UHGV virus genome: UHGV-1858859
Length of the DNA stretch: 44,515 bases
Reading direction: 5' to 3' (one strand)
Source: a virus
Shown: one piece after another, positions 6,208 through 30,518 of the stretch
How positions within the stretch are numbered: the stretch's first letter is position 1
Layout of the letters: the number at the start of each line of letters is the position of its first letter
Program-made: the position numbers and the translations under genes
Notes under the pieces: generated by a model
What the model was told of the DNA's origin: nothing
Seen by the model: the letters and a program-made list of their open reading frames with translations, nothing else
The model's database searches: none

Positions 6208-6702
6208 TTAGCGGCGTCTCTTGACGCCGTGGTTTTCATGAAATCCGTAAGCAGCTTCTGCGGCTTTACGAACGGCAACCGCCTCTTCTAATGCGCAAAA
6301 GAATCCAAGGTTAATGTGTTCGCCGTCAACACGAATAGTTGCGCGCCACTTCGATACATCCTTTCGCCAATACACGCCGGTGTATCCCGACTTATTATTA
6401 GTTAATAGCGCCCTGTTTCTGGAGTTACCTTTATTATTCGTTTTCCTTAAATTCTCTATCCTATCGTCCGCTCTGTTGTGATTGATGTGGTCTATTTGGT
6501 CGCCTTTATTTAATTTATCGGTTGGATTATGCATCTCCCATACGATATGACTAACTTTGTACTTTTTACCCAAACAGCTAACATATCGGTATCCGTTTTT
6601 GTTCACAGAACCTGCAACTATCCCCTCGGGCTTGTTCTTGCAAGGCTTATTAACCCAGTAAAGAACTCCTGAATCGTACCGGAAAACACTATACCAATTC
6701 AT
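6208..6702 (-). CDS. HNH homing endonuclease with AP2 DNA-binding domain
   Basis: HNH motif GDQIDHINHNRADDRIENLR, then AP2-like segment SGYTGVYWRKDVSKWRATIRVDGEHINLGFF. Confidence 0.8.
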   Translation of the reverse strand: MNWYSVFRYDSGVLYWVNKPCKNKPEGIVAGSVNKNGYRYVSCLGKKYKVSHIVWEMHNPTDKLNKGDQIDHINHNRADDRIENLRKTNNKGNSRNRALLTNNKSGYTGVYWRKDVSKWRATIRVDGEHINLGFFCALEEAVAVRKAAEAAYGFHENHGVKRRR

Positions 6703-6842
6703 TCCACTCCACCCGTTATGATTTCAACAAATATCTGTATCTGAGAGTTTGCACTGTCGAGTTGCTGCCGTAGGCGTAGAACCTCTTCTTCAAGTTCCTT
6801 GATACGTTTTTGCAATGCAGGAATCGGGGCTATGATGTTCAT
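6699..6842 (-). CDS. small coiled-coil protein (47 aa)
   Basis: ATG overlaps the helicase stop (ATGA) and its own stop overlaps the HNH start (ATGA); below the ORF-track length cutoff. Confidence 0.3.
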   Translation of the reverse strand: MNIIAPIPALQKRIKELEEEVLRLRQQLDSANSQIQIFVEIITGGVE

Positions 6843-8269
6843 TTCTTACCTCGTCTCTTCATATAATTAAGTAGTTCGTCCTGTACAGACCTTTTCTCGT
6901 CCGTACGCGCTGCGACAACTTCATCTAGAGTATCTCGGGCTATTATTTGATAAATGAATACAGACCGTTTGTACCCAGACTGCATCTGCCTCACCGGACC
7001 TATGCGCTCGATAACCTGCAAATAGTGTTCCAGGTTCCACCCCTGACTCATAAAGGCCATGTGATGTCCGCCGTGTTGTAGCGACAGCCCGTGGCCCGCG
7101 GAGGCTGGATGTATCAGGAGCATAGGTATTTCCCCGCGGTTCCACGCTTCCATCTGCTTATTACCCTTAGCTCCTTTGGCGAACGCCTGTGCCTGCGGGA
7201 ATCGCTTAAGAATTCGCTCCAGTTCGTGCTTGAACTGATAGGCTACCAGTAACGGAGCACCCTGCAACTCCTCAACAATGGACTCGAGCGCATCCAGTTT
7301 CGTGTCGTGCACTTTCTCCCAGTCTTTCGTTGCTTCTCCGTCCGGTCCCGATACATACACGGCACCAGATGCAATCTGCAAACACTTCGACGTCTTCGCC
7401 GCGGCGTTAGCAGCTTCAACTTCTCCGCTCTCCAGTTCCGCGAATAACTTCTCCTCCATATCGATGTACGCCTGACGTGCTTTCTTCGGCAGGTCAATTT
7501 CAACCGGAACAATAATCGGCGCTTCACACCCGAACCACTCAGCGGCGTCAATCGTGAGACTAATGTCCTTCATCTTCTGGTGAATCTCATTATCCGCCCC
7601 CGGGCGCGCATGATACTCTCGCGCCATCGCCGACTTACCTTTCTGGACAGAGTTAAACCATCGGTCGGTGAATGCCGTGTATGAAGAACCGAGGCGCTCG
7701 CCAGCGTCGATAAACCAGTTCTGGCCCCACAGGTCTTTGAGGCCATTTGGTGATGGCGTACCGGTAAGGTTGATGAAACGCTTAACCTTACCGAATGCCA
7801 CTTTACTAAGCGCCTTTGCCCGCTTGCTGCCACCTGAACGGCTACGGAAAGATTTCAGTTTCGTGCTTTCATCGGCAACAATAACCGTAAAAGGCCAGTC
7901 GTCTTTGCCGTAGTAGTCAATCAGCCACTCGATAACTTCGTAGTTAGTGCACACCACGTTAGCATCTGACTCCAGCGCCGCGATGCGGCGCTTCTCTGAA
8001 CCGGTCGCATCTACGACGCGCAGACACGGGAATCCCCACTTAGTTTGTTCTGATGGCCATGTGCCGGACGCAACACGCAGCGGGGCGAGGATTAACACTC
8101 GGTCGTCATCATTAAGTTGGCCGTTGCGGAACAGTCGGTTAAGCACCCACATCGTTGCGGAACTTTTGCCCGCGCCCATCGAAGCCCAAATATTACAGCG
8201 CGGATGTTGCAACATGAACGAAGTCATGAGCTTCTGGTACTCCCTGCGGGTAAATTTAGACATAATCAA
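6839..8269 (-). CDS. SNF2/DEAD-like superfamily 2 helicase
   Basis: Walker A MGAGKSS, DExx-type motif VADESTKLK, motif III LTGTP, C-terminal helicase motif HPASAGHGLSLQ. Confidence 0.8.
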   Translation of the reverse strand: MIMSKFTRREYQKLMTSFMLQHPRCNIWASMGAGKSSATMWVLNRLFRNGQLNDDDRVLILAPLRVASGTWPSEQTKWGFPCLRVVDATGSEKRRIAALESDANVVCTNYEVIEWLIDYYGKDDWPFTVIVADESTKLKSFRSRSGGSKRAKALSKVAFGKVKRFINLTGTPSPNGLKDLWGQNWFIDAGERLGSSYTAFTDRWFNSVQKGKSAMAREYHARPGADNEIHQKMKDISLTIDAAEWFGCEAPIIVPVEIDLPKKARQAYIDMEEKLFAELESGEVEAANAAAKTSKCLQIASGAVYVSGPDGEATKDWEKVHDTKLDALESIVEELQGAPLLVAYQFKHELERILKRFPQAQAFAKGAKGNKQMEAWNRGEIPMLLIHPASAGHGLSLQHGGHHMAFMSQGWNLEHYLQVIERIGPVRQMQSGYKRSVFIYQIIARDTLDEVVAARTDEKRSVQDELLNYMKRRGKK

Positions 8270-8460
8270 CCCTTAACGTAGAGTACCAGCTCTTTCCGCC
8301 CGAACGCCGTAACGTTACCAGTTACATCTTCGATAACCAGTTTACCGTTTGACTCGACGAACACAGTATCAACGGCAACAGGCTGGCGGGTCTTAACGTT
8401 GAAAATCATGTCGCCAGGTACGATGTCACGAGCTGGTTTTCGGTCATATTCGTGTTTCAT
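8266..8460 (-). CDS. hypothetical protein
   Basis: 64-aa ORF translationally coupled (ATGA) to the helicase start. Confidence 0.4.
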   Translation of the reverse strand: MKHEYDRKPARDIVPGDMIFNVKTRQPVAVDTVFVESNGKLVIEDVTGNVTAFGRKELVLYVKG

Positions 8461-8471
8461 TTCTCAATTCC

Positions 8472-8777
8472 TTATATTGTTGGTGTATGACTACTATAGT
8501 AGTTCGCTATTAGGTCGTCAACCTGTTTGAACGACCCGACGATAAAAACATTTGCACCACGTTTACGCATCCGCTCGTGCTCCCGTAGCTGGTGCGGGTC
8601 TGGCTTCGTGTTTTCGTCTTTCTTAACCTCGACAAACCAGACGATGCCGCCGGGGAGAATCACCAGCAGGTCGGGAGCGCCGGAACGTCCTTCGTAGGAA
8701 AGTTTACGAACGAGGCCGCCGAGGGCCTCGAATCGCTCTTTTGCATATTTCTGTATTTTGCCCTCAGGCGTACTCAT
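8472..8777 (-). CDS. VRR-NUC domain nuclease
   Basis: GAPDLLVILPGG ... VEVK pattern typical of VRR-NUC (PD-(D/E)XK fold). Confidence 0.65.
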   Translation of the reverse strand: MSTPEGKIQKYAKERFEALGGLVRKLSYEGRSGAPDLLVILPGGIVWFVEVKKDENTKPDPHQLREHERMRKRGANVFIVGSFKQVDDLIANYYSSHTPTI

Positions 8778-8858
8778 CTATACACCTCTCCCGTTTCGTA
8801 TGTTCAATCCCACAGCGCGGACAGATTCGGCAGTCTTCTTCATAGAACCAGTAAATTT

Positions 8859-8990
8859 TCATTCCAGCACCCACAGATAAATCGCGATGAACATACCTAA
8901 TACGGCGACCATCATGCCGTATTGGCCCTCGTGACAGTAGACACCGGCGGCAAATCCCGCCAGTACCGCGATAATCAGTTTACTTGGCAT
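8859..8990 (-). CDS. small hydrophobic protein (43 aa)
   Basis: MPSKLIIAVLAGFAAGVYCHEGQYGMMVAVLGMFIAIYLWVLE; its ATG overlaps the polymerase stop codon. Confidence 0.3.
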   Translation of the reverse strand: MPSKLIIAVLAGFAAGVYCHEGQYGMMVAVLGMFIAIYLWVLE

Positions 8991-11900
8991 AACGCTTCAT
9001 CTCCGCACCTTCCGCGACAAGAGGGAAGCCTTCTGCCCACTCAGGCAACGCGCACATTAATTTTTCCAGCTCAGGCACCGTGTAATCCGGCGTATCTGGA
9101 GTTTCACATACCAGTTCATCGTGTACCGAAAGCACGATGGGATACCCGCCACCCTCAACATTAATCATCGCATATGCGAGTAAATCACGGCACAGCGCCT
9201 GAACAATGTTTTCGCAGGCTTTGCCGCCGTGTGTGTACAGGGTAGTCCATTGGCGGGTTAACTGGTTTTCACCTTGGTACTTGATTCGCACATTCGTGTT
9301 TACCCGTCCGTCTTCGTCTGTTTCTTTTGTCACGCTAACGCCGATTCCTGGATACGAGAGGATACGGCCCGACGGCAACTCCATACACAACCACCAACCG
9401 GGAACCTTCCTGCCGGATGAATCGAATTCTACCGTACGCCATATGCGGATAGCCCTTTCCCTGTTCCTGCGCAAGTGTGCTCCCGCCCAAAATTCACGAC
9501 CAGGATTGCGAACAGCGGCTAAAATTCCGTCTTTAAGGTCGCGCCAGAACGCTACTGTTTCCGGGTGTGACTCACGCCACATACGCTTGATTGCGTCACA
9601 GGTACGCCATACTTTCTTATCAAGAATGTACGATGGTCTGTCATCCTTTTCACCAGGATGCGGTGGTCGCTTGGCTTCCTGAATACGCGCCCATTCATAA
9701 CCACGTGCAGTAGCCGCCCATATATGATCAGGGAAAGTACCGTCCATTGTTTTTGCCATCTCGATAAGGTCAAGACCTAAGTTTTTGGCGAACGTAACGA
9801 ACGCTCCGACGCCGCCCTCGTAGCCGAGACCGAGCTCGCAGTTATGCGCCACAAGAAAGCCAGAGTCGGAAGCTATGAGAAAACGGTTGCCGTCGTCCAC
9901 ATCAATCAGGTCGTAAACCGGCTCGCAGTAGGTTAATTTCCCGTTCAAGCTCAGCAATGCGGGCAACGGCAGCATCGTACTTTCGTTGAAGCTCAGGTAT
10001 CCGCCGTCTGTTACGGCAGTTTTCCGAACGGCTGACAAACCGAATGTTTCCAGGCTCGTAGTTACCGTCTGTGTCGATTCTGTCCATTTCGAGGTTTGGG
10101 TCATCCCAGCCTTCCAGAGTTTGAACATATCTAAGAAACGACCTTTTATCGGTCCTCCACTGGTCACACACCGTGATACCCCTTGCCCCATAGTTTTTAT
10201 AACCCTTATCTCTGGGGCTTGTTGTTCGCACGATTGCCGCCGACAACCGGTTGAGCAATCGCGTTCTGTGCGCGTCATCTGGCATTGCGTCTTCGTAGCA
10301 GAAATATTGTTTACGATATCTTTTTGTCGCTTCAAGCGCGCAGCGGTTGCATTGAGTGGTTTTACCCGCTCTGACATTGTCATAATAGACCCGCCCTGGC
10401 ATCTCCCCACAATCACATTGGGCGAGTAGTTGTCTTTGGCCTTGTCGTTTAGATAGCTCACGTAGGATAACCAGGCGACCCCACCTCTCCCCAGGGCGAG
10501 GCCCATCATATATTTGTTTGAAACGAGTTGCTTTGCCGCCTTCCAGGAATGCGTCAAGATTTTGTGGTCTTCGGTCATTAGAACCCCGTCCACATTTATC
10601 ACTGGTTTCCACCCCATAAGGTGCGCGCCTTTTGTATTCACCCATTTTTCGCCACTCCATACTTTATCTGTTGGTGTAACCGCCATAATATCCTTAAATC
10701 CGCCATCGGTCAAAACTTGGGTATGACGGTGAAGGCAAGCCTTACCTATCTGGCGTAAGTCTTTACGTTCTTTCTTAATATCGTCGGGGTCCATGCCAAA
10801 CATCTTGCCCGCGGTTACACAGTAAATATCCAGTCCGGCGCGGAACGTATCGAGCGCGGTTTCTTCACCTGCCAGCCAAGCAAGCCCGCGGCCTTCAACG
10901 TTAGAGTAATCGGCGACGACAAACTTACGCCCGGCTTCCGGTATTATGCAGCTACGCACAGTAGATGCCGTTAGTTTGGCTACATCAAAACGGCGATGGG
11001 CGCGGCCCTTAAGTAACGCCGAAATGCCTTTATCCAGCTCATAATCGTGATAGTAACCGCGTGCCAGGTTCTGCGGCTGGAAGCCTTTACCTGCCCATCG
11101 CAGAGTACGTTTTGCCCCACCGTACTGCAAGCAACCGCGACGGCGGTCGTCCGAAGAGCGGCCCAGCAGCAGCGGGTTATATTTCGTTGACGCGGTGGAC
11201 GCGGCCCCGAGGCGCATTTCGATAATTGTGCGTGCGTCGTCCGGTAAATCATCGTCCGCAAGCAAGTCATTCAGTGTCGACTTCTGCGCGTTGTGAATAC
11301 GGTGTGCAGGCGCAAGTTCACGCAGAATCGGAAGAAAGTCCTTACCAGTAAGCGAGCCGCCGTATTTGCGTTGGGCTTCCTCCTGTAACTGCGCTTTGTG
11401 TTTCTCCACGGCTTCAATAGCGGCTTCCGCCAGTGCAACGTCAACCTTAAACCCGCGGTCGTTGATTAACTGGTCCAGCTCCAGTACACGGTCTTCGAAC
11501 TCAGAGTTACCCCAACGCGGCAGCTTATGGAAGACTTCACGCATCGCAGTGATGTCGCTCACGGCGTACTTGATGAACAGCGCCCACTCGTCCGGGTGTG
11601 TTTCTGCGGTGTAGCGGCGGATTTTGTAATTCTTCGGTGTCGGTTTAGAGAAACGCTGAATCAGCGCCTTGCCGCGTTTATCTTTTGCGTTGTCTGCTGA
11701 CACGCCCAGCACTTCGCACAACGCATCGAGGGAACCCGGCAGCGCGTGACGAAACGCCCAAATCATCGTATCAATGGTGTTGCCTACAGGAATATCAAAG
11801 TCCCAGCAGTGTTTCATGATGAGCCTATCGAACATTGAGCCGTTGTGCCATACCATCTTAATACGACTGTTCGGCTTAACCAGGCGGCGCAGTGCGCGGT

Positions 11901-12078
11901 GCAAATCACCCGGCATGTCGCTGCCGTCGGTGCAATCCCATACCCGCACAGGCTCGTCGTCAAAAGCATATGTGCAGATAAGCACTTCGGTAGTCGGGTG
12001 TTCGGCGTAAGCGTAGGAGCCGACTTTCTTCAAATCGGCTTCGGAGAATGTTTCAAAGTCCAGGTATAAGTAGCTCAT
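8980..12078 (-). CDS. family A DNA polymerase (3'-5' exonuclease + polymerase) interrupted by an in-frame intein
   Basis: Exo I motif LDFETFS near the N-terminus, motif A DYSNVEGRGLAWLAGE, motif B split as RQIGKA / CELGLGYEGG around the intein, motif C LSVHDELV. Start set at ATG 12078 (MSYLYLDFETF) with an AAGGA RBS rather than the track start at 12132. Confidence 0.85.
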   Translation of the reverse strand: MSYLYLDFETFSEADLKKVGSYAYAEHPTTEVLICTYAFDDEPVRVWDCTDGSDMPGDLHRALRRLVKPNSRIKMVWHNGSMFDRLIMKHCWDFDIPVGNTIDTMIWAFRHALPGSLDALCEVLGVSADNAKDKRGKALIQRFSKPTPKNYKIRRYTAETHPDEWALFIKYAVSDITAMREVFHKLPRWGNSEFEDRVLELDQLINDRGFKVDVALAEAAIEAVEKHKAQLQEEAQRKYGGSLTGKDFLPILRELAPAHRIHNAQKSTLNDLLADDDLPDDARTIIEMRLGAASTASTKYNPLLLGRSSDDRRRGCLQYGGAKRTLRWAGKGFQPQNLARGYYHDYELDKGISALLKGRAHRRFDVAKLTASTVRSCIIPEAGRKFVVADYSNVEGRGLAWLAGEETALDTFRAGLDIYCVTAGKMFGMDPDDIKKERKDLRQIGKACLHRHTQVLTDGGFKDIMAVTPTDKVWSGEKWVNTKGAHLMGWKPVINVDGVLMTEDHKILTHSWKAAKQLVSNKYMMGLALGRGGVAWLSYVSYLNDKAKDNYSPNVIVGRCQGGSIMTMSERVKPLNATAARLKRQKDIVNNISATKTQCQMTRTERDCSTGCRRQSCEQQAPEIRVIKTMGQGVSRCVTSGGPIKGRFLDMFKLWKAGMTQTSKWTESTQTVTTSLETFGLSAVRKTAVTDGGYLSFNESTMLPLPALLSLNGKLTYCEPVYDLIDVDDGNRFLIASDSGFLVAHNCELGLGYEGGVGAFVTFAKNLGLDLIEMAKTMDGTFPDHIWAATARGYEWARIQEAKRPPHPGEKDDRPSYILDKKVWRTCDAIKRMWRESHPETVAFWRDLKDGILAAVRNPGREFWAGAHLRRNRERAIRIWRTVEFDSSGRKVPGWWLCMELPSGRILSYPGIGVSVTKETDEDGRVNTNVRIKYQGENQLTRQWTTLYTHGGKACENIVQALCRDLLAYAMINVEGGGYPIVLSVHDELVCETPDTPDYTVPELEKLMCALPEWAEGFPLVAEGAEMKRYAK
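9841..10737 (-). mobile_element. intein (299 codons) inserted in DNA polymerase motif B
   Basis: Block A CLHRHTQVLTDGG right after motif B Lys-Ala; block B GVLMTEDHKILT; blocks F/G VYDLIDVDDGNRFLIASDSGFLVAHN followed by Cys +1. Removing it restores RQIGKACELGLGYEGG. Confidence 0.7.
9902..10660 (-). CDS. HNH endonuclease encoded inside the intein in a different reading frame
   Basis: 252-codon ORF in another frame of the same strand; contains KGYKNYGARGITVCDQW ... EMDRIDTDGNYEPGNIRFVSRSEN, resembling free-standing phage HNH endonucleases. True start uncertain. Confidence 0.6.
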   Translation of the reverse strand: MEWRKMGEYKRRAPYGVETSDKCGRGSNDRRPQNLDAFLEGGKATRFKQIYDGPRPGERWGRLVILRELSKRQGQRQLLAQCDCGEMPGRVYYDNVRAGKTTQCNRCALEATKRYRKQYFCYEDAMPDDAHRTRLLNRLSAAIVRTTSPRDKGYKNYGARGITVCDQWRTDKRSFLRYVQTLEGWDDPNLEMDRIDTDGNYEPGNIRFVSRSENCRNRRRIPELQRKYDAAVARIAELEREINLLRAGLRPD

Positions 12079-12230
12079 TTCTTTTTCCTTAAATCCAGTG
12101 CCTTCGTTTCGCTGAGTCTTATTTTCATACAATCACGACAAATCCACACATGCCTGTACCCGGCGCGGTACTCATCCGCGTACCACGGAAGCGGTTTCAT
12201 ATATCGGTATACGTGCTTACAGAAAAACAT
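12075..12230 (-). CDS. small Cys-containing protein (51 aa)
   Basis: MFFCKHVYRYMKPLPWYADEYRAGYRHVWICRDCMKI...; stop overlaps the polymerase ATG (ATGA); below track cutoff. Confidence 0.3.
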   Translation of the reverse strand: MFFCKHVYRYMKPLPWYADEYRAGYRHVWICRDCMKIRLSETKALDLRKKK

Positions 12231-12250
12231 GATTTTCGACCCTTAGTAAA

Positions 12251-12270
12251 AAGGCCCAATGAAGGGCCTT
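12251..12270 (-). terminator. stem-loop downstream of the SSB-like gene, weak T-run
   Basis: aaggccc-aatgaa-gggcctt hairpin about 20 nt after the stop at 12290; only ttt follows on the minus strand, so probably partial termination. Confidence 0.4.
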
Positions 12271-12289
12271 AGTTAAATTGATTCAGATA

Positions 12290-12916
12290 TTAACGGCGGC
12301 GACGTTCGCGGCGCGGTGCTTCATCTTCTTCGTCGTCTTCCAGGTCATTGACGCTTGCGGCGACTTTAGAACCACCAAACGCTTTACCTTCGCCAACATA
12401 TTTAATTGCCAGCAGGTTAACGCCTAGAACTTTATATTTCTGGCTGAACCAGATTTCAACGCTTACATTAGCTACGCAGCCACTGTAAACCTGTTCACCT
12501 TCAATCTGTTCGCCGTCTACGTTGAAGTCCTGCTCTACCTGAGTCTCACCTTTTTTAGATGTTACAATCAGTGGCTGTTTCTGTGCCTTAGCTTTGAAGT
12601 AGAAGCCTTCCGGGAAGTCTTCAAACGGATTGTCGCGTTCAGCAATATCTTTAATTGCACATTTATCCATGTGCTTACCTTCGCCGTAGTTGGACTTCAT
12701 CCACTTCTCGGCAGCGGCTGCGCCTAACGCTTCTTCAACTACAGCGTAGACAGTGTCGTAGAGCGCGTCGATTTGCGCGTGGTCAGACGGCAGGATTATA
12801 GTCGCGCTGTACTGGCCTTTAGTGGTGGAGCCATCATCGTTTTCACGGTCTTTTTCGCGTTCGAATACGTTAACCCAGGCAGTGTTTACTTTACGCAGAT
12901 TCAGCTTAATACCCAT
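12290..12916 (-). CDS. ssDNA-binding-like protein with acidic C-terminal tail
   Basis: 208 aa ending in DLEDDEEDE...RRERRRR; sits between a Cas4-like nuclease and the polymerase, as in a conserved phage replication cassette; own promoter upstream. Confidence 0.5.
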   Translation of the reverse strand: MGIKLNLRKVNTAWVNVFEREKDRENDDGSTTKGQYSATIILPSDHAQIDALYDTVYAVVEEALGAAAAEKWMKSNYGEGKHMDKCAIKDIAERDNPFEDFPEGFYFKAKAQKQPLIVTSKKGETQVEQDFNVDGEQIEGEQVYSGCVANVSVEIWFSQKYKVLGVNLLAIKYVGEGKAFGGSKVAASVNDLEDDEEDEAPRRERRRR

Positions 12917-12971
12917 ATCTCGATTCCTCAGTTTTTAGTTTACTCCGGGAAGCTGCCCGGCCAGTGATTAG

Positions 12972-13000
12972 AACTATAATAGCCAACTATTCAGGTGTCA
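12972..13000 (-). promoter_or_regulatory. sigma70-like promoter TTGACA-N17-TATAGT with embedded palindrome
   Basis: Minus-strand reading ttgaca cctgaatagttggctat tatagt; contains ATAATAG-ccaa-CTATTCA (plus strand 12975-12992). Confidence 0.6.
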
Positions 13001-13005
13001 ACACT

Positions 13006-14247
13006 TTATTCCAAATCTTCTTCACTAACCTGATTCCACTCAGGCCGTTTGTCGTCTGCCGTTGTGATGCATGGGGCACCTGGTTTACGTGTGATGAAGT
13101 CTTTCAGTTCTTCTTCCGGCACAACTTTAACCGCTTCGGTCGGCGTCATGAGCACTTCTTTAGTCAGCTTGTCGCCGTAGAGTTCTGTTACTTTCTCCGC
13201 GTCTTTCCACGCACGATTGCCCATCTTACCTTCAACCAGCTTGTACCCAGGAACTTTCTTACCGGAATGCAACGCGGCAGCCATAGCTTTCTCAACCTTG
13301 TCGATGTGCTGGCGCAACAACGGCAACTTCTCGTACTCAGCTACGAGTTCCTCCGGCGTAAGTTCCAGCGCAAAGTCGTCCTCCAGTTCTTCCGCCAGCA
13401 CCGCGTTGACGGTTTTTGTACGCGCGGCGCACTGCTCTGAGAAACGGCACCATTGGCAACCGTCGACAGACGGCCTGAAGTCCGACGCTTTCAGGTTCTT
13501 TTTACCACGGAAATACGCATCAAGAGCTAACAGCGCCCGTTTCTGCGCAAACTTAGCGAACAGTTCCAGACCTTCAACCGAGATGTCCCACTCCGACGCG
13601 CCGCCAGCGTATGGCTGAAAGATGACCAGACGAACGGTTGTTATGTTATAACGTCTCTTGAGTCGGCGATAAACACCTAGAGCGTAGAGCATAAGCTGCT
13701 TGTTTTCTTTCGCTTCGACACGATGCCGTCCTGTTTTCAGGTCGCCGATGATAAGCATGTGCCCGTCAGTGTTAGCCAGTTCCTGAACGGCAACAAGGTC
13801 AGCGGTTCCGAACGTCTCAACGCCTTCATACCCAGGATGCAATACCTCAGTAAGATTGACGCGCATTTCCAGCTTGGCGTAAGTTGCTACATCGATAATC
13901 GGTTTGCAGTAGTCGGTGTACTTTCGCACCTGCTCAATCATGTCCGCCGTAATCAGTACCGCGCCTTTCATCGGGCTGATTAGCGCCTTAATCTGGCCTT
14001 TACCCTCATCCAGCACGTAAGCGCCAACTTCACGCTCTAACGGCAACGCAGTGCAGCGGATATAGGCGTTGAGATGGACTTCAGCTATGGTGTGGCACGC
14101 TGTCCCCGTAACGGCGGATTTACCCGACGTGTTAGGAATATCTTTTTCACAGGCCAGTGATGCAGCGCATGACAGCCATTTTTTAGCACCTGACGGCGAA
14201 AGTAAGGCGTGAACATCGTTATTGCCGCCGCGTTCTTTTAGAATCAT
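13006..14247 (-). CDS. PD-(D/E)XK nuclease, Cas4-like with Cys cluster
   Basis: IIGDLKTG motif, N-terminal LSCAASLAC and C-terminal CQWCRFSEQC cysteines consistent with a Cas4/RecB-like Fe-S nuclease. Confidence 0.65.
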   Translation of the reverse strand: MILKERGGNNDVHALLSPSGAKKWLSCAASLACEKDIPNTSGKSAVTGTACHTIAEVHLNAYIRCTALPLEREVGAYVLDEGKGQIKALISPMKGAVLITADMIEQVRKYTDYCKPIIDVATYAKLEMRVNLTEVLHPGYEGVETFGTADLVAVQELANTDGHMLIIGDLKTGRHRVEAKENKQLMLYALGVYRRLKRRYNITTVRLVIFQPYAGGASEWDISVEGLELFAKFAQKRALLALDAYFRGKKNLKASDFRPSVDGCQWCRFSEQCAARTKTVNAVLAEELEDDFALELTPEELVAEYEKLPLLRQHIDKVEKAMAAALHSGKKVPGYKLVEGKMGNRAWKDAEKVTELYGDKLTKEVLMTPTEAVKVVPEEELKDFITRKPGAPCITTADDKRPEWNQVSEEDLE

Positions 14248-14860: not shown

Positions 14861-14903
14861 AATTACGACCCTCAGTTAAAGCGGCCCGAAGGCCGCGAGA
14901 TAA

Positions 14904-21632: not shown

Positions 21633-21634
21633 TT

Positions 21635-22373: not shown

Positions 22374-22448
22374 ACCGTTATTAGGATAATTCCTACCCGT
22401 GGTATCCTCCAGTTACTGCATACTTAATACGCACCTGGAGGATTCATC

Positions 22449-23488: not shown

Positions 23489-23544
23489 CACCTGAGACTA
23501 ATCCGACGATACTTAAATCACCTCCTGTTCCATCCCTCTGCTCT

Positions 23545-23580
23545 CCAGTTTTATCCCGGCCCTGACCCAGCCGGGATTTT
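23545..23580 (+). terminator. rho-independent terminator after the lysis genes
   Basis: cccggc-cctgaccca-gccggg hairpin followed by atttttatctatttt. Confidence 0.55.
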
Positions 23581-23666
23581 TATCTATTTTCTGCAATGAC
23601 TAGTTGACTATTACCTTAGACCCTATTATATTTACTCCATCAACAACGAGAACGGAGTAGAGAGAA

Positions 23667-23855
23667 ATGATGACTAAGATTAAACATACCGATGACTGGG
23701 GTGATTTCATGGAGATAGAGAAGTGCAGGGATGGTTCATTACTTATAACTTGCACCGACGGTGATAGTGACGAATGGGCTAATGTTAATGTGAGCCTGGA
23801 CGATTTTGAGATTATTGTTGAGCAGGTTATGGCGTTTTATGGAGATGTTAAATGA
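23667..23855 (+). CDS. hypothetical protein
   Basis: 62-aa acidic ORF with GGAG RBS. Confidence 0.4.
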   Translation: MMTKIKHTDDWGDFMEIEKCRDGSLLITCTDGDSDEWANVNVSLDDFEIIVEQVMAFYGDVK

Positions 23856-24001
23856 AAATCACAGATATCGAAGCATTCGAAGACGCACAACTGATGGCAC
23901 GCATTGCCGTTAGTAACCTAGGCGGAAGCATTCCTGCGGACGCGTTCTGGTCCGCAGGAATGCAGGCACTGAAAGCAGCTTATGCAGGAGATAAGAAATG
24001 A
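23852..24001 (+). CDS. hypothetical protein (49 aa)
   Basis: ATGA-coupled; below track cutoff. Confidence 0.3.
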   Translation: MKITDIEAFEDAQLMARIAVSNLGGSIPADAFWSAGMQALKAAYAGDKK

Positions 24002-24153
24002 GCGAACAAGGTCAAGTAAGTCAACCCTTACGAGTAGGCCGTAAAGTCAGTCACACCCCGTTCCCGACACGCGAGGAATTGATGAAACGTAACAGTTTCC
24101 CAGGGCCGGACAAGAACAAGTATCTCAATCGCATGTGGGGAGAGCAGAAATGA
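23998..24153 (+). CDS. hypothetical protein (51 aa)
   Basis: ATGA-coupled at both ends; below track cutoff. Confidence 0.3.
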   Translation: MSEQGQVSQPLRVGRKVSHTPFPTREELMKRNSFPGPDKNKYLNRMWGEQK

Positions 24154-24338
24154 CTGATCGTGAATACGAAAAGATGATGGTGGACGCTGCAAATGGAAAA
24201 ACGCAGAATGCTAAAGCTGAAATAGGGATACTCGATAAGCGGATAGAAGAACAGGCTCGATACCTTGACCGCCTTATGGAACGCCGCCGTGAACTGATTA
24301 ATCGCTTCAACCTGAACAAAGGTGACGCCAATGCCTAA
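24150..24338 (+). CDS. hypothetical coiled-coil protein
   Basis: ATG at 24150 (MTDREYEK) overlapping the upstream stop. Confidence 0.4.
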   Translation: MTDREYEKMMVDAANGKTQNAKAEIGILDKRIEEQARYLDRLMERRRELINRFNLNKGDANA

Positions 24339-24570
24339 AATAACAATCGCATCACTTGAGCGCCGTATCCTGGTACTTGAGTCAGAGAAACAGACGTTAG
24401 GTGGGCAACTGTCGATTAACGGTGAGTTTCAACTGGAGGCGTTTAAGTTGTTACTTGATAAGTTGAAAGCGGACGAAAAGCCTTGCGCGCATGACTACTA
24501 CATGCATTTAGTTGATGGGGTACATCGGGTTACATGCATTAAATGCGGTAAAGCGTATGGAGTCGCCTAA
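24331..24570 (+). CDS. hypothetical protein with C-terminal zinc-ribbon-like motif
   Basis: CAHDYYMHLVDGVHRVTCIKCG; start overlaps the upstream gene. Confidence 0.4.
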   Translation: MPKITIASLERRILVLESEKQTLGGQLSINGEFQLEAFKLLLDKLKADEKPCAHDYYMHLVDGVHRVTCIKCGKAYGVA

Positions 24571-24739
24571 ACCAGTAGTTATAGATGGCGTCCTGTGGAA
24601 ACCCTACTCGGTTAACCACATCGACGCCGACGGGAAGAAGTTCAGCTTCTACATTTTTGCAATTAGCCGCGAACACGCCGCCTGTGTGGTCGATGATATA
24701 CGAGAAACGGCGTGGCTTGGCGATGAGGTAGTGGGGTGA
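24557..24739 (+). CDS. hypothetical protein
   Basis: ATG at 24557 (MESPKPVV), overlapping the upstream gene. Confidence 0.4.
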   Translation: MESPKPVVIDGVLWKPYSVNHIDADGKKFSFYIFAISREHAACVVDDIRETAWLGDEVVG

Positions 24740-24741
24740 TT

Positions 24742-24912
24742 ATGTTCAGTGACATCAACGCAGCAATCGAAGAAGCAATATGGCGGCGCTATAACGGCGA
24801 GCAACAGCGGCACTTTTGCCTCGTGCAACGCGGTAACATGATTGCCGTAGTGCAGGACCGCGATAACAAATATCCGAATGCAATGTGGACGACGAGGAAT
24901 TTCGTAGGATGA
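24742..24912 (+). CDS. hypothetical protein (56 aa)
   Basis: ATG 3 nt after the upstream stop; stop overlaps the next ATG (ATGA). Confidence 0.3.
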   Translation: MFSDINAAIEEAIWRRYNGEQQRHFCLVQRGNMIAVVQDRDNKYPNAMWTTRNFVG

Positions 24913-25145
24913 TTACCAGCATTCCGAACCTGATTAAAGAATACGGCACGATGGCGGAGACGTGCCGACGGACCGGCATCAACGAAATGACGATTGCAAA
25001 GTACAGCAAAGACGTTAACTGCGAGCGCCACGTAATTTATAACAACCGTCTTATGACGCATGTTAAGACAAGCCCGGTGTTATTCACTCGCCGCGGTATC
25101 ACTAAAACTGAGCAACGCATTGCTAAAGAGGAGAGTGAGGAGTGA
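24909..25145 (+). CDS. putative small DNA-binding protein
   Basis: HTH-like segment AETCRRTGINEMTIAKYS. Confidence 0.35.
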   Translation: MITSIPNLIKEYGTMAETCRRTGINEMTIAKYSKDVNCERHVIYNNRLMTHVKTSPVLFTRRGITKTEQRIAKEESEE

Positions 25146-25307
25146 AAAAGTTAACTGTCTACCGGAAAACCGGCGCTACGTCAGAACTCGATGTTTTCAG
25201 TGTAACGCAGTGTGAGAAGTTCTGGTGCGCAGAAACATTCAACGGAGAAGTGAGAATACCAATCGCACTGGCAGACGGCGGCGATATAACCGAATAGTCA
25301 CACCACA

Positions 25308-25331
25308 AGCCCTCTACGGAGGGCTTTTCTG
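25308..25331 (+). terminator. rho-independent terminator closing the early region
   Basis: agccctc-tacg-gagggct hairpin followed by tttct. Confidence 0.55.
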
Positions 25332-25424
25332 TACATCCTGCCTAATCCCCTTATATAATCCCTTTAGACGCGTAGGGCGCGTCTGGTGCGCTCTGATGGT
25401 CAGACGCATATGCAAGGGGATTCT

Positions 25425-25970
25425 ATGAAGCTGAAACTCAAGCAGCCATCGCCAGAGGTGGTGCAAGCTGCACATGAAGAAGCCGTTAGCGCAAACCGTC
25501 GCCGTAAACGACCGCGCGGTAAACAGAGCATTTATCAATCATCCCGTAATTCCGCCGCGTTGTGGGACCCGGACTATTGCGATGCATTGATTCGTTTCTT
25601 CGACCGCACGTCATGGGAGCTTGTACCTACGTCTAAGGGTGACGAACGCCCGCTGATTCAGGACAAACCGCCGTCACTGGCCCGCTTTGCCTTACGCATC
25701 GGCGTCACTATCCCGATTATTAAGCTGTGGCTGCGCGAGATTCCCGCATTCGCAGAAGCATGGGAGACAGCGCAGGCATTGGAAGAGGCATACTTCACTG
25801 AGACAGGGGCCGCAGGTATCTCTGCTACGTTTGCCGCTGCGAAACTTGGCCTTGGCAAAGAGAAACCAGTTGAATCCGCCGAAGAAACGGCACCGACTGA
25901 GATTATTTTCAGTGTTGCGGAGCCTGTAGGTAAAATTGTAACAACGAACATGGGTGAGGTAGAGGAATGA
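25425..25970 (+). CDS. terS: terminase small subunit
   Basis: Immediately upstream of and overlapping terL; basic N-terminus and HTH-like segment; start chosen at ATG 25425 with AAGGGG RBS. Confidence 0.55.
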   Translation: MKLKLKQPSPEVVQAAHEEAVSANRRRKRPRGKQSIYQSSRNSAALWDPDYCDALIRFFDRTSWELVPTSKGDERPLIQDKPPSLARFALRIGVTIPIIKLWLREIPAFAEAWETAQALEEAYFTETGAAGISATFAAAKLGLGKEKPVESAEETAPTEIIFSVAEPVGKIVTTNMGEVEE

Positions 25971-27217
25971 GTATTCAGCTATCCGCGCCGCAGGCACTGT
26001 TCCTGAATTGTGACAACAAATACAAGGCCTACGTAGGCGGCTTCGGTAGTGGCAAGACGTTTGTCGGCTGCCTTGACCTGCTTACGTTTATGCTTAAGCA
26101 CCCCGGTACGCGCCTTGGTTACTTCGGCCCGACCTACCCGGCTATCCGCGACATCTTCTACCCGACATTCGAGGAAGCTGCTAACCTCCTGGGCCTTGAT
26201 GTGCTGGTTAAATCCGGCGACAAAGAGGTCGTCGTTACGAGAGGTAAGACAGTAATCGGTACAGTAATCTGCCGTTCGATGGATAACCCAGGCTCTATCG
26301 TCGGTTTCAAAATAGCCGCGGCGGTCGTTGATGAACTGGACGTTCTGAGCCGCGAGAAAGCGGAACTGGCGTGGAACAAAATCGTAGCCCGTATGCGTCT
26401 GGTTATCCCTGGAGTGGTAAACCACATCTCCGTTACCACGACACCGGAGGGATTCAAGTTCGTCTACGCCAAGTTCAAAGAGAACCCGACACCGAGTTAC
26501 TCAATGGTGCAGGCTTCCACCCACGAGAACGCGCGATTCCTGCCGCCTGACTACATTAGCTCGCTGACCGAGACTTACCCAGCGCAACTGATTAACGCGT
26601 ACCTGAATGGGGAGTTCGTTAACCTGACATCCGGCAGCGTCTACTACGCCTACGACCGACGTAAGCATCGCAGCAAAGAGACAATCCAACCGGGCGACAC
26701 GCTGTACATCGGGCAGGACTTCAACGTTACGAAGAACGCCAGCGCCGTGTATGTGCAACGTAAAGACGGCTGGCACGCGGTAGCAGAACTGAAGGGCCTG
26801 TTCGATACGCCAGATACCGTGCGTGTGATTACCGAGAAGTGGAAGTCGCAAGGCCACCGCATCGTCGTTTACCCGGACGCCAGCGGCAAGAACCGCAAAA
26901 CCAACTCGGCGTCAATCTCCGATATCGCCTTACTACAGCAGGCCGGTTTTGATGTTCGCGCTAAATCCGCCAACCCACCGGTTAAAGACCGTGTTTTAGC
27001 CGTGAATACCGCGCTGGAAAAAGGTAAGCTGTGGGTTAACGACCACTTATGCCCTGAGATAGCGAAGACGCTGGAGCAGCAGGCATATGATGATAACGGA
27101 GAGCCTGCTAAAGACGGCGTCATTGACCATATGGCGGATGCTCTCGGCTATCCTGTAGTTTATGAGATGCCGGTGGTTAAACCAGTAATCAACATCCCGG
27201 TGACTTTCGCACTTTAA
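25967..27217 (+). CDS. terL: terminase large subunit
   Basis: Walker A GGFGSGKT, Walker B AAVVDELD, C-terminal nuclease-like acidic motifs (GQDFN, DASG, DHMADALG). Confidence 0.85.
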   Translation: MSIQLSAPQALFLNCDNKYKAYVGGFGSGKTFVGCLDLLTFMLKHPGTRLGYFGPTYPAIRDIFYPTFEEAANLLGLDVLVKSGDKEVVVTRGKTVIGTVICRSMDNPGSIVGFKIAAAVVDELDVLSREKAELAWNKIVARMRLVIPGVVNHISVTTTPEGFKFVYAKFKENPTPSYSMVQASTHENARFLPPDYISSLTETYPAQLINAYLNGEFVNLTSGSVYYAYDRRKHRSKETIQPGDTLYIGQDFNVTKNASAVYVQRKDGWHAVAELKGLFDTPDTVRVITEKWKSQGHRIVVYPDASGKNRKTNSASISDIALLQQAGFDVRAKSANPPVKDRVLAVNTALEKGKLWVNDHLCPEIAKTLEQQAYDDNGEPAKDGVIDHMADALGYPVVYEMPVVKPVINIPVTFAL

Positions 27218-27229
27218 GAGGATTATTCA

Positions 27230-28711
27230 ATGTTAACTATGAACGGTCAGAATCAGGGTGTTAAGACAAAACACCGGGAATGGCTGCATCACTTCAATAA
27301 ATGGCAGAAGGTGCGCCACGCGCTGGAAGGCGACCTCATCCGTTACCTGCGCAATGTCGGGAAGAACGAGCCTGACCCGACCTATGCGGCACAGCGCCAG
27401 GAAGAATACGAGAACGGCGCTATCTGCTACAACTTCACTAAACGTACCCTGGCGGGGATGGTCGGCAGTGTTATGCGTAAAGACCCTGAGCAGATTATCC
27501 CGCCTGAACTTGAGTACCTGTTACGCAACGCTGACGGTTCGGGCGTCGGGCTATGGCAGCACGCGCAGGATACTTTGATGGAAATTGACTCGGTAGGTCG
27601 TGGCGGGTTGCTGGTTGATGCACCAGAGACCGCCGCAGCAACGGCAGCCGAACAGAACGCAGGATTATTAAACCCGGTCATCGCATTCTACACCGCGGAG
27701 AACATCATCAACTGGAGACTGACCCGCGTCGGTTCAGTTAACCGCGTGACAATGGTCGTGTTGCGCGAAGTATGGGAATACTCTGAACCCGGTGCAGAGT
27801 TCGAAACAAAGTTCGGTGAGCAGTATCGCGTTCTCGATTTGATTGACGGGCGCTACCGCCAGCGCATTTACCGCTTCGATGCCGAAGGTGGTGTTCATGG
27901 TGAAGTAATCGAAATATTCCCGGAACTTGGCGAACAGTTACGCGGCAAAATCCCGTTCACGTTCATCGGGGCAAGCAACAACGATGCCGCCATCGACGAC
28001 GCACCTTTGCTACCGTTAGCTGAGCTGAATATCGGGCATTTCCGTAACAGCGCGGACAATGAAGAGTCCAGTTTCGTTGTAGGCCAGCCCACTCTGTTCA
28101 TCGCCCCGGGCGAGAACATGAGCATGGAACAGTGGAAAGAGGCCAACCCACACGGCGTGCGCATGGGGTCTCGTTCAGGCCATAACATCGGGTACGGCGG
28201 CAACGCGTTTCTGGTTCAGGCAGGGGAGAACAACCTGGCTAAGCAGAACATGCTGGATAAAGAGAATCAGGCCATCCAGATTGGCGCGCAGCTTATCACC
28301 CCGACGCAGCAAATAACCGCTGAATCGGCCCGCCTGCAACGTGGTGCGGATACGTCTGTTATGGCGACAATCGCACGTAACGTAAGCATGGCGTACACCG
28401 ATTCGTTGCGCTGGGTGGCTGCGATGCTAGGGTTGCGTGAAGGCACAGAGATTGAGTTCAAACTTAACATGGAGTTCTTCCTGCAACCGATGACCGCTCA
28501 GGACCGCGCTCAGTGGATGGCGGACATTAATGCCGGTCTGCTGCCAGCGACCGCTTACTACGCCGCGTTGCGTAAAGCAGGGGTGACTGACTGGACCGAC
28601 GAGGATATTCAGAACGCTATTGAGGACGCACCTCTGCCGTTAGGTGCTGTTACTCAGGTGGCAGGAGAGATTCCGCAGTCGGCGCAGCAACAAGATGTCA
28701 CTCAGCAGTAA
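27230..28711 (+). CDS. portal protein
   Basis: 493 aa immediately after terL; size and position typical of portal. Confidence 0.7.
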   Translation: MLTMNGQNQGVKTKHREWLHHFNKWQKVRHALEGDLIRYLRNVGKNEPDPTYAAQRQEEYENGAICYNFTKRTLAGMVGSVMRKDPEQIIPPELEYLLRNADGSGVGLWQHAQDTLMEIDSVGRGGLLVDAPETAAATAAEQNAGLLNPVIAFYTAENIINWRLTRVGSVNRVTMVVLREVWEYSEPGAEFETKFGEQYRVLDLIDGRYRQRIYRFDAEGGVHGEVIEIFPELGEQLRGKIPFTFIGASNNDAAIDDAPLLPLAELNIGHFRNSADNEESSFVVGQPTLFIAPGENMSMEQWKEANPHGVRMGSRSGHNIGYGGNAFLVQAGENNLAKQNMLDKENQAIQIGAQLITPTQQITAESARLQRGADTSVMATIARNVSMAYTDSLRWVAAMLGLREGTEIEFKLNMEFFLQPMTAQDRAQWMADINAGLLPATAYYAALRKAGVTDWTDEDIQNAIEDAPLPLGAVTQVAGEIPQSAQQQDVTQQ

Positions 28712-28721
28712 GTTCACATAT

Positions 28722-28744
28722 AGCCCCGAAAGGGGCTTTCTTAT
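28722..28744 (+). terminator. stem-loop / partial terminator after the portal gene
   Basis: agcccc-gaaa-ggggct hairpin followed by ttcttat. Confidence 0.45.
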
Positions 28745-28780
28745 AGTATGCTATTAACTTTAGCGCCACAGGGTTTATCT

Positions 28781-29824
28781 ATGAGCTTACTTACATCTCT
28801 AATCAGCCACCAGATATGGCTGCAACGCACTGCATCCGGTGAGGTGAAAGACCTCGCGCCGTTCATTAAGGAGATGCGGGACGAAATAAAACGGCAGGTG
28901 CTGTTATTCGGTGACGACGGGCGGAGCACTGCGCGACTGAATAAGCTGTTACTCGACCTTGAAGAAGCACTGACGGGGCTTACAGGCGACTGGCAAACAA
29001 AGCTGACAGAAGACCTTAAGGAACTGGCCGCATATGAGGCTGAGTGGAACGTAAAAACACTGACCGCCAACGTTGACGCGGAATTTGTTACGCCTACCGC
29101 CGAACAGGTGTGGGCTGCTGCCGAGTTTCAGCCGCTGTCGTTAAGCGACAAGCCCGTCGATTTCACTAAGCTGATGGCAGGCTGGGGTGAAACGGAGGCC
29201 GCGCGCCTCGTAACCGGCGTTAAGATGGGGTTTGTTCAGGGCCAAACCACACGGCAGATTGTTAAAAATGTCGTAGGCGCTGGTGGGCTGGCGGACATCT
29301 CTGAACGCAACGCGGCTACGGTAATCCGCACCGCGCTGTCTCACGTATCCAACGAAGCCCGCAACGAGACATACCGCCAGAACGACGACATCATCGAGAA
29401 ATACGAATGGGTGTCAACGCTGGACAGCCGTACCAGTACGATTTGCAGGGCCAGAGACGGGATGACGTGGGAAATCGGTAAAGGTCCGATGCCCCCCGCC
29501 CATTTTGGATGTCGAAGTACCACTGCACCGGTAATAAGTTCGGAGTTCGACTTCCTAGATAAAGGTGCAAAACGCGCGGCTAATGGTGCGGACGGCGGTA
29601 TGCAGGTAAGCGCAGACACCACCTATTACGAGTTCCTGAAACAGCAACCGGCATGGTTCGTGGATGAAGCACTCGGACCTACCCGCGGTGCTATATTCAG
29701 GAATAGTGGGATATCCCCAGAGGAATTCCGGGTAATATCCGTCGACGCTTTTGGTAGACCTTTAACCTTGAAGGAGATGGCGGCGTTAGATAACAGGGTT
29801 GCTGAATATCTTAGGTCGGTATAA
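28781..29824 (+). CDS. head morphogenesis protein (Mu gpF / SPP1 gp7-like)
   Basis: Conserved C-terminal motif STLDSRTSTICRARDGMTWEIGKGPMPPAHFGCRST; start chosen at ATG 28781 downstream of the hairpin. Confidence 0.65.
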   Translation: MSLLTSLISHQIWLQRTASGEVKDLAPFIKEMRDEIKRQVLLFGDDGRSTARLNKLLLDLEEALTGLTGDWQTKLTEDLKELAAYEAEWNVKTLTANVDAEFVTPTAEQVWAAAEFQPLSLSDKPVDFTKLMAGWGETEAARLVTGVKMGFVQGQTTRQIVKNVVGAGGLADISERNAATVIRTALSHVSNEARNETYRQNDDIIEKYEWVSTLDSRTSTICRARDGMTWEIGKGPMPPAHFGCRSTTAPVISSEFDFLDKGAKRAANGADGGMQVSADTTYYEFLKQQPAWFVDEALGPTRGAIFRNSGISPEEFRVISVDAFGRPLTLKEMAALDNRVAEYLRSV

Positions 29825-29882
29825 AGTATATCTAGTAGCTAGCTTTGGTCGGTGAACTACTAAAAATAGAGAAAGAATATAA

Positions 29883-29938
29883 CCCCATGAAGGTATGCCT
29901 ATCTCTGGCATCGACCAATCTTCATGGGGTTTTCTTAT
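29883..29938 (+). terminator. long stem-loop with T-run
   Basis: ccccatgaag ... cttcatgggg 10-bp arms with a 27-nt loop, followed by ttttcttat; encloses the ATG at 29895 used by the track. Confidence 0.4.
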
Positions 29939-29948
29939 AGGGTTTAAT

Positions 29949-30518
29949 ATGGGAATTGTTTTTGGTGTGGGTATTAACGATGTTTCACCAATAAGTTGCG
30001 GAGGGGTGCATATAGCGTCCTACGCCGTATGGAAGAACATGTTAAAGAGGTGCTACGACAAGAAATGGCAGCAAAGAAACAGAACTTATATAGGTTGCCG
30101 TGTGTCGGACGATTGGTTGGTGTCCAGTAATTTCAAGGTCTGGTCTGATGATTTTTATGTACCTGGGTGGCAGATAGATAAGGATTTACTTAACCCGGGA
30201 AATAAGGTTTACGATGCTTCTAACTGTGTTTTCATCCCTAAATCCCTCAATACTTTCCTAACAGCCCACGACGCTCTTCGAGGCGAACACCCACTCGGCG
30301 TACATTTCCATAAACAAAAGAAAAGATTCATCGCTCAAGTATCCGTGGATGGCGTATCTGAACAAATAGGCGCTTACGAAACCGCTCAAGAGGCACACGT
30401 AGCATGGTTTCATAGAAAAATTGAATTAGCATATGAATACAAAGGTCTTTGCGATAGCATAGACCCACGCCTTTTCGAAGGCGTCTTACGTAAGATTAAC
30501 TCAATGAAAGAGGTTTAG
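29949..30518 (+). CDS. HNH-family homing endonuclease with C-terminal AP2 domain
   Basis: N-terminal WKNMLKRCY ... WQIDKDLLNPGNKVYDASNCVFIP nuclease-like region; AP2-like HKQKKRFIAQVSVDGVSEQIGAYETAQEAHVAW. Start uncertain (ATG 29949 chosen). Confidence 0.55.
   Translation: MGIVFGVGINDVSPISCGGVHIASYAVWKNMLKRCYDKKWQQRNRTYIGCRVSDDWLVSSNFKVWSDDFYVPGWQIDKDLLNPGNKVYDASNCVFIPKSLNTFLTAHDALRGEHPLGVHFHKQKKRFIAQVSVDGVSEQIGAYETAQEAHVAWFHRKIELAYEYKGLCDSIDPRLFEGVLRKINSMKEV

Follow-up and report, generated by a model that had tools for sequence, protein, structure and literature searches.

A question raised by the genome of the virus UHGV-1858859, which was analysed as one stretch of 44,515 nucleotides (the window), is what kind of elements its three scattered HNH-type endonuclease genes are, and whether they are mobile. 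A sequence-only reading had listed these genes at 6208-6702 on the minus strand (hnh1), at 9902-10660 on the minus strand inside an intein (the nested gene) and at 29949-30518 on the plus strand (hnh3), and coordinates, strands and matches to HNH endonuclease families of PHROGs all agree with that list. We consider it likely, from comparison of the sequences, that three selfish endonuclease elements of homing type, independent of one another, reside in the window. It could be shown by alignment with relatives that each element is cleanly present or absent at its site, as the sequence-only reading had expected of places where related phages differ, and because of this pattern the homing interpretation, with active homing as the probable process behind the comparative evidence, is largely supported. 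The most interesting part is the nested gene, which is read in another frame than its intein, belongs to a nuclease family without the catalytic histidine, and stands in an arrangement that is conserved across hundreds of phage polymerase genes.

The family membership of the three products was established with profiles, which were needed because PDB searches with the single sequences of all three proteins returned chance matches only. In PHROGs, hnh1 belongs to phrog_99 (E=6.9e-56), the nested protein to phrog_374 (E=8.5e-46) and hnh3 to phrog_953 (E=3.7e-76), each of which is annotated as HNH endonuclease. The Pfam domain HNH_3 is above threshold in hnh1 alone (E=6.2e-9, 35.8 bits against a cut-off of 24.8), and the assignment of the nested protein and hnh3 to the HNH family comes from their PHROGs annotations only. 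A six-frame scan of the window with hidden Markov models built from homologues of all three families found no fourth copy. The further claim that two of the genes, hnh1 and hnh3, encode an AP2 domain is upheld by profile and fold, yet below the Pfam threshold: PF00847 misses its gathering score in hnh1 (E=0.43, 11.3 bits against a cut-off of 33.3) and has no match in hnh3, while precomputed PF00847 matches are present in several homologues of either protein. Both domains have the fold of a three-stranded sheet and a helix, with profile similarity to solved AP2/ERF domains. The hnh1 family profile reaches I-HmuI (1U3E) over residues 7-102 (E=5.9e-9) and plant AP2 domains over residues 104-155 (WRI1, E=9.9e-6; TEM1, E=1.6e-3), the hnh3 family profile reaches WRI1 (E=1.6e-6) and AtERF1 (E=3.2e-3), and the two families align with each other across the AP2 region with an hhalign probability of 97%. 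No AP2 domain is present in the nested protein.

The nested gene resides in the gene for the family A DNA polymerase precursor (8980-12078, minus strand). The open reading frame (ORF) of this precursor extends to 12132, and the likely start is the ATG at 12078, which gives 1032 residues, the same as in phage fPoEco01. A class-1-type intein of 299 residues (9841-10737, 897 nt, minus strand) sits in frame in polymerase motif B, with the borders RQIGKA/C...VAHN/CELGLGY. The intein is found in 11 relatives and is precisely absent in about 44, where the exteins abut without a gap (RQIGKA-CELGLGY); most of these intein-less alleles already have the +1 Cys, and a minority of diverged alleles has Met at this position. 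The window intein has the full set of splicing residues: Cys1, T-x-x-H, the terminal H-N and the +1 Cys. In a mini-intein alignment of 22 diverse copies C1, T55/H58 and H136/N137 are invariant, and the sampled loci have C or S at +1. A profile of the mini-intein, made of the N- and C-terminal parts, matches among the solved inteins NEQ068 (E=8.7e-5) and the PI-MtuI mini-inteins (about 1e-3), followed by the DnaX mini-intein (3.3e-3) and the DnaB intein (0.079); a single-sequence PDB search with the mini-intein gave chance matches only, and Pfam (E<=10) had no match to either part of the intein.

The N-extein flank points to a recent transfer of this intein. Compared with the intein-less locus L006, the window shows 8 mismatches at 7-33 nt from the intein junction, and then a single one in the next 330 nt. 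In this tract (10738-10770, minus strand), which was co-inherited with the intein, the window is 100% identical to the intein-bearing locus L039 and 98% identical to L032, and both of these fall to about 83% farther out. We regard these roughly 35 nt as a co-conversion tract. On the C-extein side the pattern is a mosaic, with dense mismatches at 9598-9736 and few at 9737-9840, and does not read as a single co-conversion tract. An aberrant copy of the intein occurs in the Salmonella phage SS3e (L038/L128), where it has 899 instead of 897 nt and both frames are broken, which points either to a sequencing error or to decay of the element.

The HNH gene had been described as nested in the intein. 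It does lie wholly inside the intein DNA, but it is a separate gene in the +2 frame relative to the intein and forms no part of the intein polypeptide. As homologues begin with a conserved "MG", the start at 10645, which gives a protein of 247 residues, is more likely than the one at 10660; this ATG is located within the conserved intein motif W-x-G-x-x-W-V. Its product combines a zinc ribbon (CxC...CxxC) with a core like that of His-Me fingers and, at the C-terminus, a coiled coil. In the ten intact 897-nt copies the intein frame has 0 stops and the nested frame is open throughout; the third frame has about 30 stops. Between nt 241 and 760 of the intein, the ratio of nonsynonymous to synonymous polymorphism (pN/pS) is 0.10 in the nested frame versus 1.31 in the intein frame, and third positions of the nested frame account for 45 of the 72 variable sites. 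At both intein ends it is the intein frame that is constrained (ratios 0.18 and 0.07), and at nt 78-240 both frames are. Translated in frame, the linker matches no family. A canonical in-frame endonuclease domain is therefore not what this intein holds, its HNH ORF being in the +2 frame; instead it has the features of an out-of-frame-endonuclease intein, namely a second ORF under purifying selection and a host frame that is free of stops but unconstrained. The intein would thereby supply splicing, and the separately translated gene the presumed nuclease.

This arrangement is not peculiar to the window. A pattern scan of IMG/VR, derived from the alignment of the nested protein, gave at least 568 confirmed matches, of which the best 80 loci were kept. 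Among these best 80, whose homologues are 40-94% identical, 79 have a host frame that stays free of stops across the entire HNH match; the exception, L175, is cut by a contig end. The host frame measures 269-1280 codons in those 79 and exceeds 600 in all but the frame-damaged L128 of SS3e, which was counted via its shortest open span (269 codons). In these loci the HNH ORF reads without exception in the +2 frame, and each locus that includes the C-terminal junction continues through H-N-C/S into polymerase motif B. The inteins of the surveyed loci have 277-299 residues, and the same overprint is found in three contigs from other collections. Most database homologues of the nested gene are on contigs of about 0.85-1.2 kb, close to the length of the intein, and we suspect that they are short because assemblies of mixed phage populations break where intein borders are polymorphic. 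A more far-reaching proposal, which we put forward tentatively and which falls somewhat short of being probable, is that the polymerase element is one ancient and very widespread composite, in which the motif-B intein is always accompanied by a +2-overprinted gene for a zinc-ribbon, PacI-like HNH protein without the His. If this is true, out-of-frame intein endonucleases would be common in phages and not "rare", and many database entries of about 245 residues that are named HNH endonuclease would be intein residents.

A related phage (L045, 1-2655) is without this intein and has another one farther downstream in the polymerase, with the borders GGKLAEN/C...VIAHN/CTQALCRD. This second intein contains an out-of-frame (+1) ORF of 215 residues at 1718-2362, whose product is 28% identical to the nested protein, and it is an independent case of the same architecture.

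The first free-standing gene, hnh1, encodes 164 residues, with an I-HmuI-like N-terminal part and the AP2 domain at about residues 104-155. Its start codon forms an ATGA overlap with the upstream ORF and is preceded by GGAG. Its site was compared in 68 helicase-centred IMG/VR loci. In most relatives window positions 6133-6222 run straight into 6762 onward, and since the flanks are directly joined in this way (6222 to 6762), the 539 nt at 6223-6761 are an insertion, the hnh1 cassette. It is bounded by an imperfect 12-nt direct repeat with 9/12 identical positions, of which CTACGGCAGCAA precedes the insert and CCACGGCGTCAA forms its end. Both anchors could be placed in 40 loci, and among them the cassette is filled in L006 alone and absent in the other 39. 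The sequence-only reading had called the positions of hnh1 and hnh3 intergenic-like, which does not hold for either. The hnh1 cassette splits a conserved gene of 45 codons, which runs uninterrupted across the empty junction in 32 loci (MNIIAPIPALQKRIKELEEEVLRLRQQRDAANAQLAFVLEKLSEE) and has its counterpart in gp33 of fPoEco01, where the intact gene is at 24580-24717. The protein is nearly invariant, and third codon positions make up 35 of 54 variable sites. What is left of this gene in the window is a hybrid remnant on the minus strand (6699-6842), composed of 27 original codons (6762-6842) and 20 from the cassette, and an orphaned 3' part at 6164-6221.

The cassette of L006 is 100% identical to that of the window, and the adjacent 3' end of the helicase gene is only 67-78% identical; other loci possess the helicase allele of the window without the cassette. 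From an identical cassette beside divergent helicase ends, together with the same helicase allele without it, we conclude that the cassette has moved between backgrounds. This neighbourhood is a hotspot for cassettes: the distance from the helicase stop to the small gene is 0, 62, about 178, 226-244, 478-490 or 508 nt in relatives. The inserts of 478-490 nt encode HNH-AP2 paralogues that are 43-46% identical to hnh1. Also observed at about window position 6841 was a cassette of 508 nt, present in nine relatives (L005, L015, L017, L022, L027, L028, L041, L043 and L050), with a product of about 168 residues in which Toprim-like motifs (TESIFKAV...AGDNDKAG) were recognised by eye, and ten other relatives have at the same place a cassette of about 178 nt that encodes a protein of 58 residues. 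In nearly all relatives, be they E. coli or Salmonella phages, the 45-codon gene and the terminator (6133-6222 and 6762-6842) show 90-98% identity, and the flanking tailspike and the helicase 3' end are far more variable (about 70-78% for 6900-7100); this looks like a conserved junction block between exchangeable cassettes.

The gene hnh3 is free-standing as well and encodes 189 residues, with a His-Me finger that is devoid of the His and an AP2 domain at about residues 113-160. Its site was compared in 44 loci centred on the MuF-like head morphogenesis gene (MuF). In about 32 of these, window position 29811 abuts 30505, which identifies the 693 nt at 29812-30504, missing in empty-site relatives, as an insertion; 6 loci are filled. 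An empty allele is offered by fEg-Eco19, with its junction of MuF and decoration gene at about 9400-9700. The insertion point is four codons ahead of the MuF stop, and the cassette thus replaces the last four MuF codons: it provides MuF with a new end, RSV and stop, and the hnh3 ORF terminates in the displaced original codons for KEV and stop. The MuF sequence just before the insert (29650-29811, plus strand) is hyperdivergent from the relatives without the HNH gene. Over the last 160 nt of MuF, empty-site relatives are 64-72% identical, compared to 87-94% just upstream; about 49 differences fall in 159 nt (31% versus about 10% upstream) and are mostly synonymous, with about 10 amino-acid changes. 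Filled loci are 95-97% identical in the same tract, except for the divergent L090 (about 85%). Such divergence is consistent with a nuclease target in this tract and with immunity of the filled allele, and we consider it a candidate target and immunity tract. The 124-nt spacer before hnh3 holds a strong hairpin (29881-29931, plus strand) with a U-rich run and then a second hairpin (29932-29955, plus strand) that pairs the hnh3 start codon (z=-2.9); these structures may limit the expression of hnh3. The position of hnh3 inside the head module, like that of the nested gene inside the polymerase gene, is at odds with the assumption that all three genes stand at module boundaries, which applies to hnh1 only, at the convergent junction of tailspike and replication genes. 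Other material was seen at the junction of MuF and decoration gene in two relatives: L075 (4066-4878) has a C-terminal extension of MuF with ADP-ribosyltransferase-like motifs, and L102 (3980-5080) has a minus-strand ORF of 308 residues with a PAPS-reductase-like N-terminus, both as judged by eye.

The active sites of the three proteins are not alike. In hnh1 the canonical D71-H72 is invariant, and N84, N93 and N96 are conserved. The nested protein has invariant D193-R194, Y201, N205 and N214 among 47 homologues, and hnh3 has invariant D77-K78-D79, Y88 and N101 among 43. The position of the canonical catalytic His, which follows Asp in the D-H motif at the end of the first beta-strand, is occupied by His in hnh1, by Arg194 in the nested protein and by Lys78 in hnh3, where the equivalence of D-R and D-K to D-H is taken from a weak hhalign alignment. 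A search of PDB with the nested-family profile reached neither PacI nor any other nuclease and returned zinc-ribbon look-alikes only. The families of the nested protein and hnh3 together comprise 62,316 cluster representatives at E<=1e-10.

How these elements would spread can be pictured as follows, with cleavage, repair, splicing and translation start as steps that we infer and with anatomy, distribution and selection patterns as the observations. In a mixed infection with a relative that is free of the element, the nuclease would nick or cut the empty allele, and recombinational repair from the element-bearing genome would copy the element together with some flanking sequence. The intein would allow the 897-nt insertion to sit in motif B of an essential family A DNA polymerase, as protein splicing would clear the stop-free and otherwise unconstrained linker from the polymerase. 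Translation of the nested gene probably begins at an internal start of its own. As alternative, the nested frame could be reached by programmed -1 frameshifting, and no canonical slippery heptamer was seen by eye at about 10640-10680.

Several observations weigh against three active homing elements. Neither the nested protein nor hnh3 has the canonical general-base His, and neither has any Pfam match at E<=10. When the nested family is aligned with the other two by hhalign, the motifs are paired as expected, and the probabilities are low (4% and 16%). The window has a clear Shine-Dalgarno sequence (GGAG) ahead of the nested start, but it is not conserved, and a core motif occurs in only 11 of 73 loci. 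A candidate promoter for the nested gene, a 10/12 sigma-70-like match at 10713-10685, was rejected, as matches of this kind are no commoner there than in shuffled sequence, and its -35 element derives from conserved Leu-Thr codons. The hnh1 cassette is present in just one other locus, so that its recent mobility rests on a single comparison. Presence and absence could also come from deletion or from ordinary homologous exchange of the flanks, and the flank patterns at hnh1 and hnh3 are consistent with homing and no proof of it. Following these points, the nested protein and hnh3 might be catalytically dead relics or domesticated DNA-binding proteins, and the distribution would then be due to past mobility, deletion or ordinary recombination and not to current homing. 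The Arg194 and Lys78 at the position of the catalytic His, the missing Pfam HNH matches and the weak similarity of both proteins to nuclease folds are in favour of this, and a published classification of the superfamily counts as inactive those His-Me finger groups that have neither the His nor a Tyr in its place (PMC5714182). The residues that are invariant among homologues, however, indicate conserved variants and not decayed copies, and we think that the relic explanation is improbable.

It is considerably less probable still that the HNH genes serve the phage itself, as accessory rather than selfish genes, in terminase-associated packaging, degradation of host or competitor DNA, or superinfection exclusion. 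Terminase-adjacent HNH proteins are reportedly needed for packaging in some phages (PMC3592412), and hnh3 does sit in the head-gene block, but none of the three genes adjoins the terminase genes (25386-27217). Moreover, most close relatives are without each gene and are nevertheless complete phages, the cassettes are precisely bounded, one of them disrupts a conserved gene, and paralogous HNH genes occupy other scattered sites in relatives. Finally, the nested ORF could be a chance open frame, or a sequencing frameshift could have displaced the in-frame endonuclease domain that standard inteins have, for which the 899-nt copy of SS3e with its broken frames might be quoted. This explanation is refuted for practical purposes by 79 of the 80 independent best loci (40-94% identity), where both frames are open and stand in the same +2 relation, and also by the selection on the nested frame, the linker without family match and the conserved "MG" start. 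We therefore retain three selfish elements of homing type as the likely explanation.

The known system nearest to hnh1 is I-HmuI, which is encoded in an intron and whose C-terminal DNA-binding modules are not known to be AP2 domains. The two share the beta-rich N-terminal region and the D-H...N...N motif, after which the AP2 domain follows in hnh1; unlike I-HmuI, hnh1 stands free and has a small protein-coding gene as its insertion site. Free-standing homing genes of the seg and mob type in T4-like phages are known for their sporadic presence, empty sites and divergent or co-converted flanks. In the same manner hnh1 and hnh3 occur sporadically at or between conserved genes, with empty sites and with flanks that are divergent or apparently co-converted, and they differ from seg and mob genes in the combination of AP2 with an HNH or His-less HNH domain and in that one cassette lies inside a gene. 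HNH-AP2 genes are common free-standing phage genes (PMC2248197), and Guernseyvirinae with inteins and free-standing HNH genes have already been reported (PMC6763661; PMC8425127), so that the free-standing HNH-AP2 genes of the window are ordinary for this phage group.

The nested gene belongs to an architecture that is known and reportedly rare. Endonucleases that are encoded out of frame or antisense within inteins were, as cited in more recent papers, proposed by Gorbalenya in 1998. In actinobacteriophage inteins an endonuclease VII-like ORF was found in frame 3, and antisense LAGLIDADG and VSR-like ORFs were described (bioRxiv 10.1101/2025.01.02.630785), and a cyanobacterial dnaX intein has a LAGLIDADG ORF in the +2 frame, for which the same kind of frame-specific selection analysis was made (bioRxiv 10.64898/2026.09.14.751524). 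Both of these recent papers on non-canonical inteins term the architecture rare (bioRxiv 10.1101/2025.01.02.630785; bioRxiv 10.64898/2026.09.14.751524), in contrast to the at least 568 matches in IMG/VR described above. The polymerase intein agrees with the reported non-canonical inteins in having an endonuclease ORF in another frame of the intein DNA and an in-frame linker without recognisable fold, in the purifying selection on the endonuclease frame with a relaxed intein frame, and in the coexistence of intein-free alleles. It differs from them in its host gene, a family A polymerase found in siphophages of enterobacteria and in many phages that are uncultured, and in its nuclease, a zinc-ribbon His-Me finger without the His, whose ORF overlaps some of the N-terminal splicing domain (about 50 codons). 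A comparable situation is the hidden HNH of the ShiLan type, an out-of-frame HNH ORF in a stop-free insertion in phage methylase genes (PMC11855218). The two have in common that the HNH ORF is out of frame and that the insertion is free of stops in the host frame; the ShiLan insertion has no splicing domain, whereas the insertion in the polymerase is a recognisable intein. With regard to the active site, the nested protein and hnh3 may resemble PacI, of His-Me finger group 20, in being without the His and in having an invariant Tyr, although the similarity is weak, the nested profile does not match PacI, and PacI is a restriction enzyme and not a nuclease of a mobile element. In the full-text literature, in which few subscription journals were covered, we found no description of a motif-B polymerase intein with this HNH family.

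Genes of this kind matter mainly as markers of mosaic junctions and as traps in annotation. The exact cassette borders, the empty alleles and the near-isogenic intein-less contig UViG_3300010279_000003 make homing directly testable, and whether the nested protein and hnh3 cut through a Tyr in the style of PacI would tell what a very large set of proteins annotated as "HNH" do. The polymerase intein itself offers a large natural series in which one intein and one independently translated endonuclease gene share the same DNA in two frames. This overprint bears on the question of how inteins gain an endonuclease, including the idea that the splicing domain came first and a free-standing gene invaded it later, and on the upkeep of overlapping genes.

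As to its origin, the nearest matches of the region are E. coli siphophages of the genus Kagunavirus (Guernseyvirinae) with 90-97% nucleotide identity, and Salmonella phages of the Jersey type match at about 85%, which makes the window phage a Kagunavirus-like siphophage. The intein-less contig UViG_3300010279_000003 comprises both L006 and L073; it has both free-standing cassettes and no intein, and its polymerase N-extein is 99-100% identical to that of the window. The gene order follows the annotation of the phages fEg-Eco19 and fPoEco01. The plus strand holds the tail genes and, at 3899-6136, the tailspike gene. Next comes the replication block on the minus strand, in which the helicase (6839-8269) is joined by a VRR-NUC protein and by the family A DNA polymerase. 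A terminator-like hairpin (6141-6160, minus strand) is found between the convergent tailspike and replication genes. Early and lysis genes are next after the replication block, and the head genes on the plus strand comprise terminase, portal, the MuF-like head morphogenesis gene (28748-29824) and an Ig-like decoration protein (30522-30980). A gene on the minus strand inside this head block (31009-31530) has PHROGs matches to a RusA-like resolvase and to a DNA polymerase processivity factor, and its counterpart in fEg-Eco19 is annotated as "possible moron".

Relatives contain further inteins and HNH-like genes. The MuF genes of L105-L107 (insert at about 3757-4587) and L108 (3693-4586) have inteins of about 830-890 nt, at points equivalent to about 29503 and about 29440 of the window, respectively. 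An ORF of 272-293 residues on the opposite strand spans most of each of them, in which they resemble the antisense-endonuclease inteins of actinophage minor capsid genes. Further HNH-like genes are found in L001 (18559-19191, 11334-11840 and 24270-24920) and L002 (12559-13191); they are located behind the tail tube gene, between the genes for spanin and scaffold, and behind the tape measure gene. These sites are empty in the window (38736-38765), and two of the additional genes encode proteins that are 33-37% identical to hnh3.

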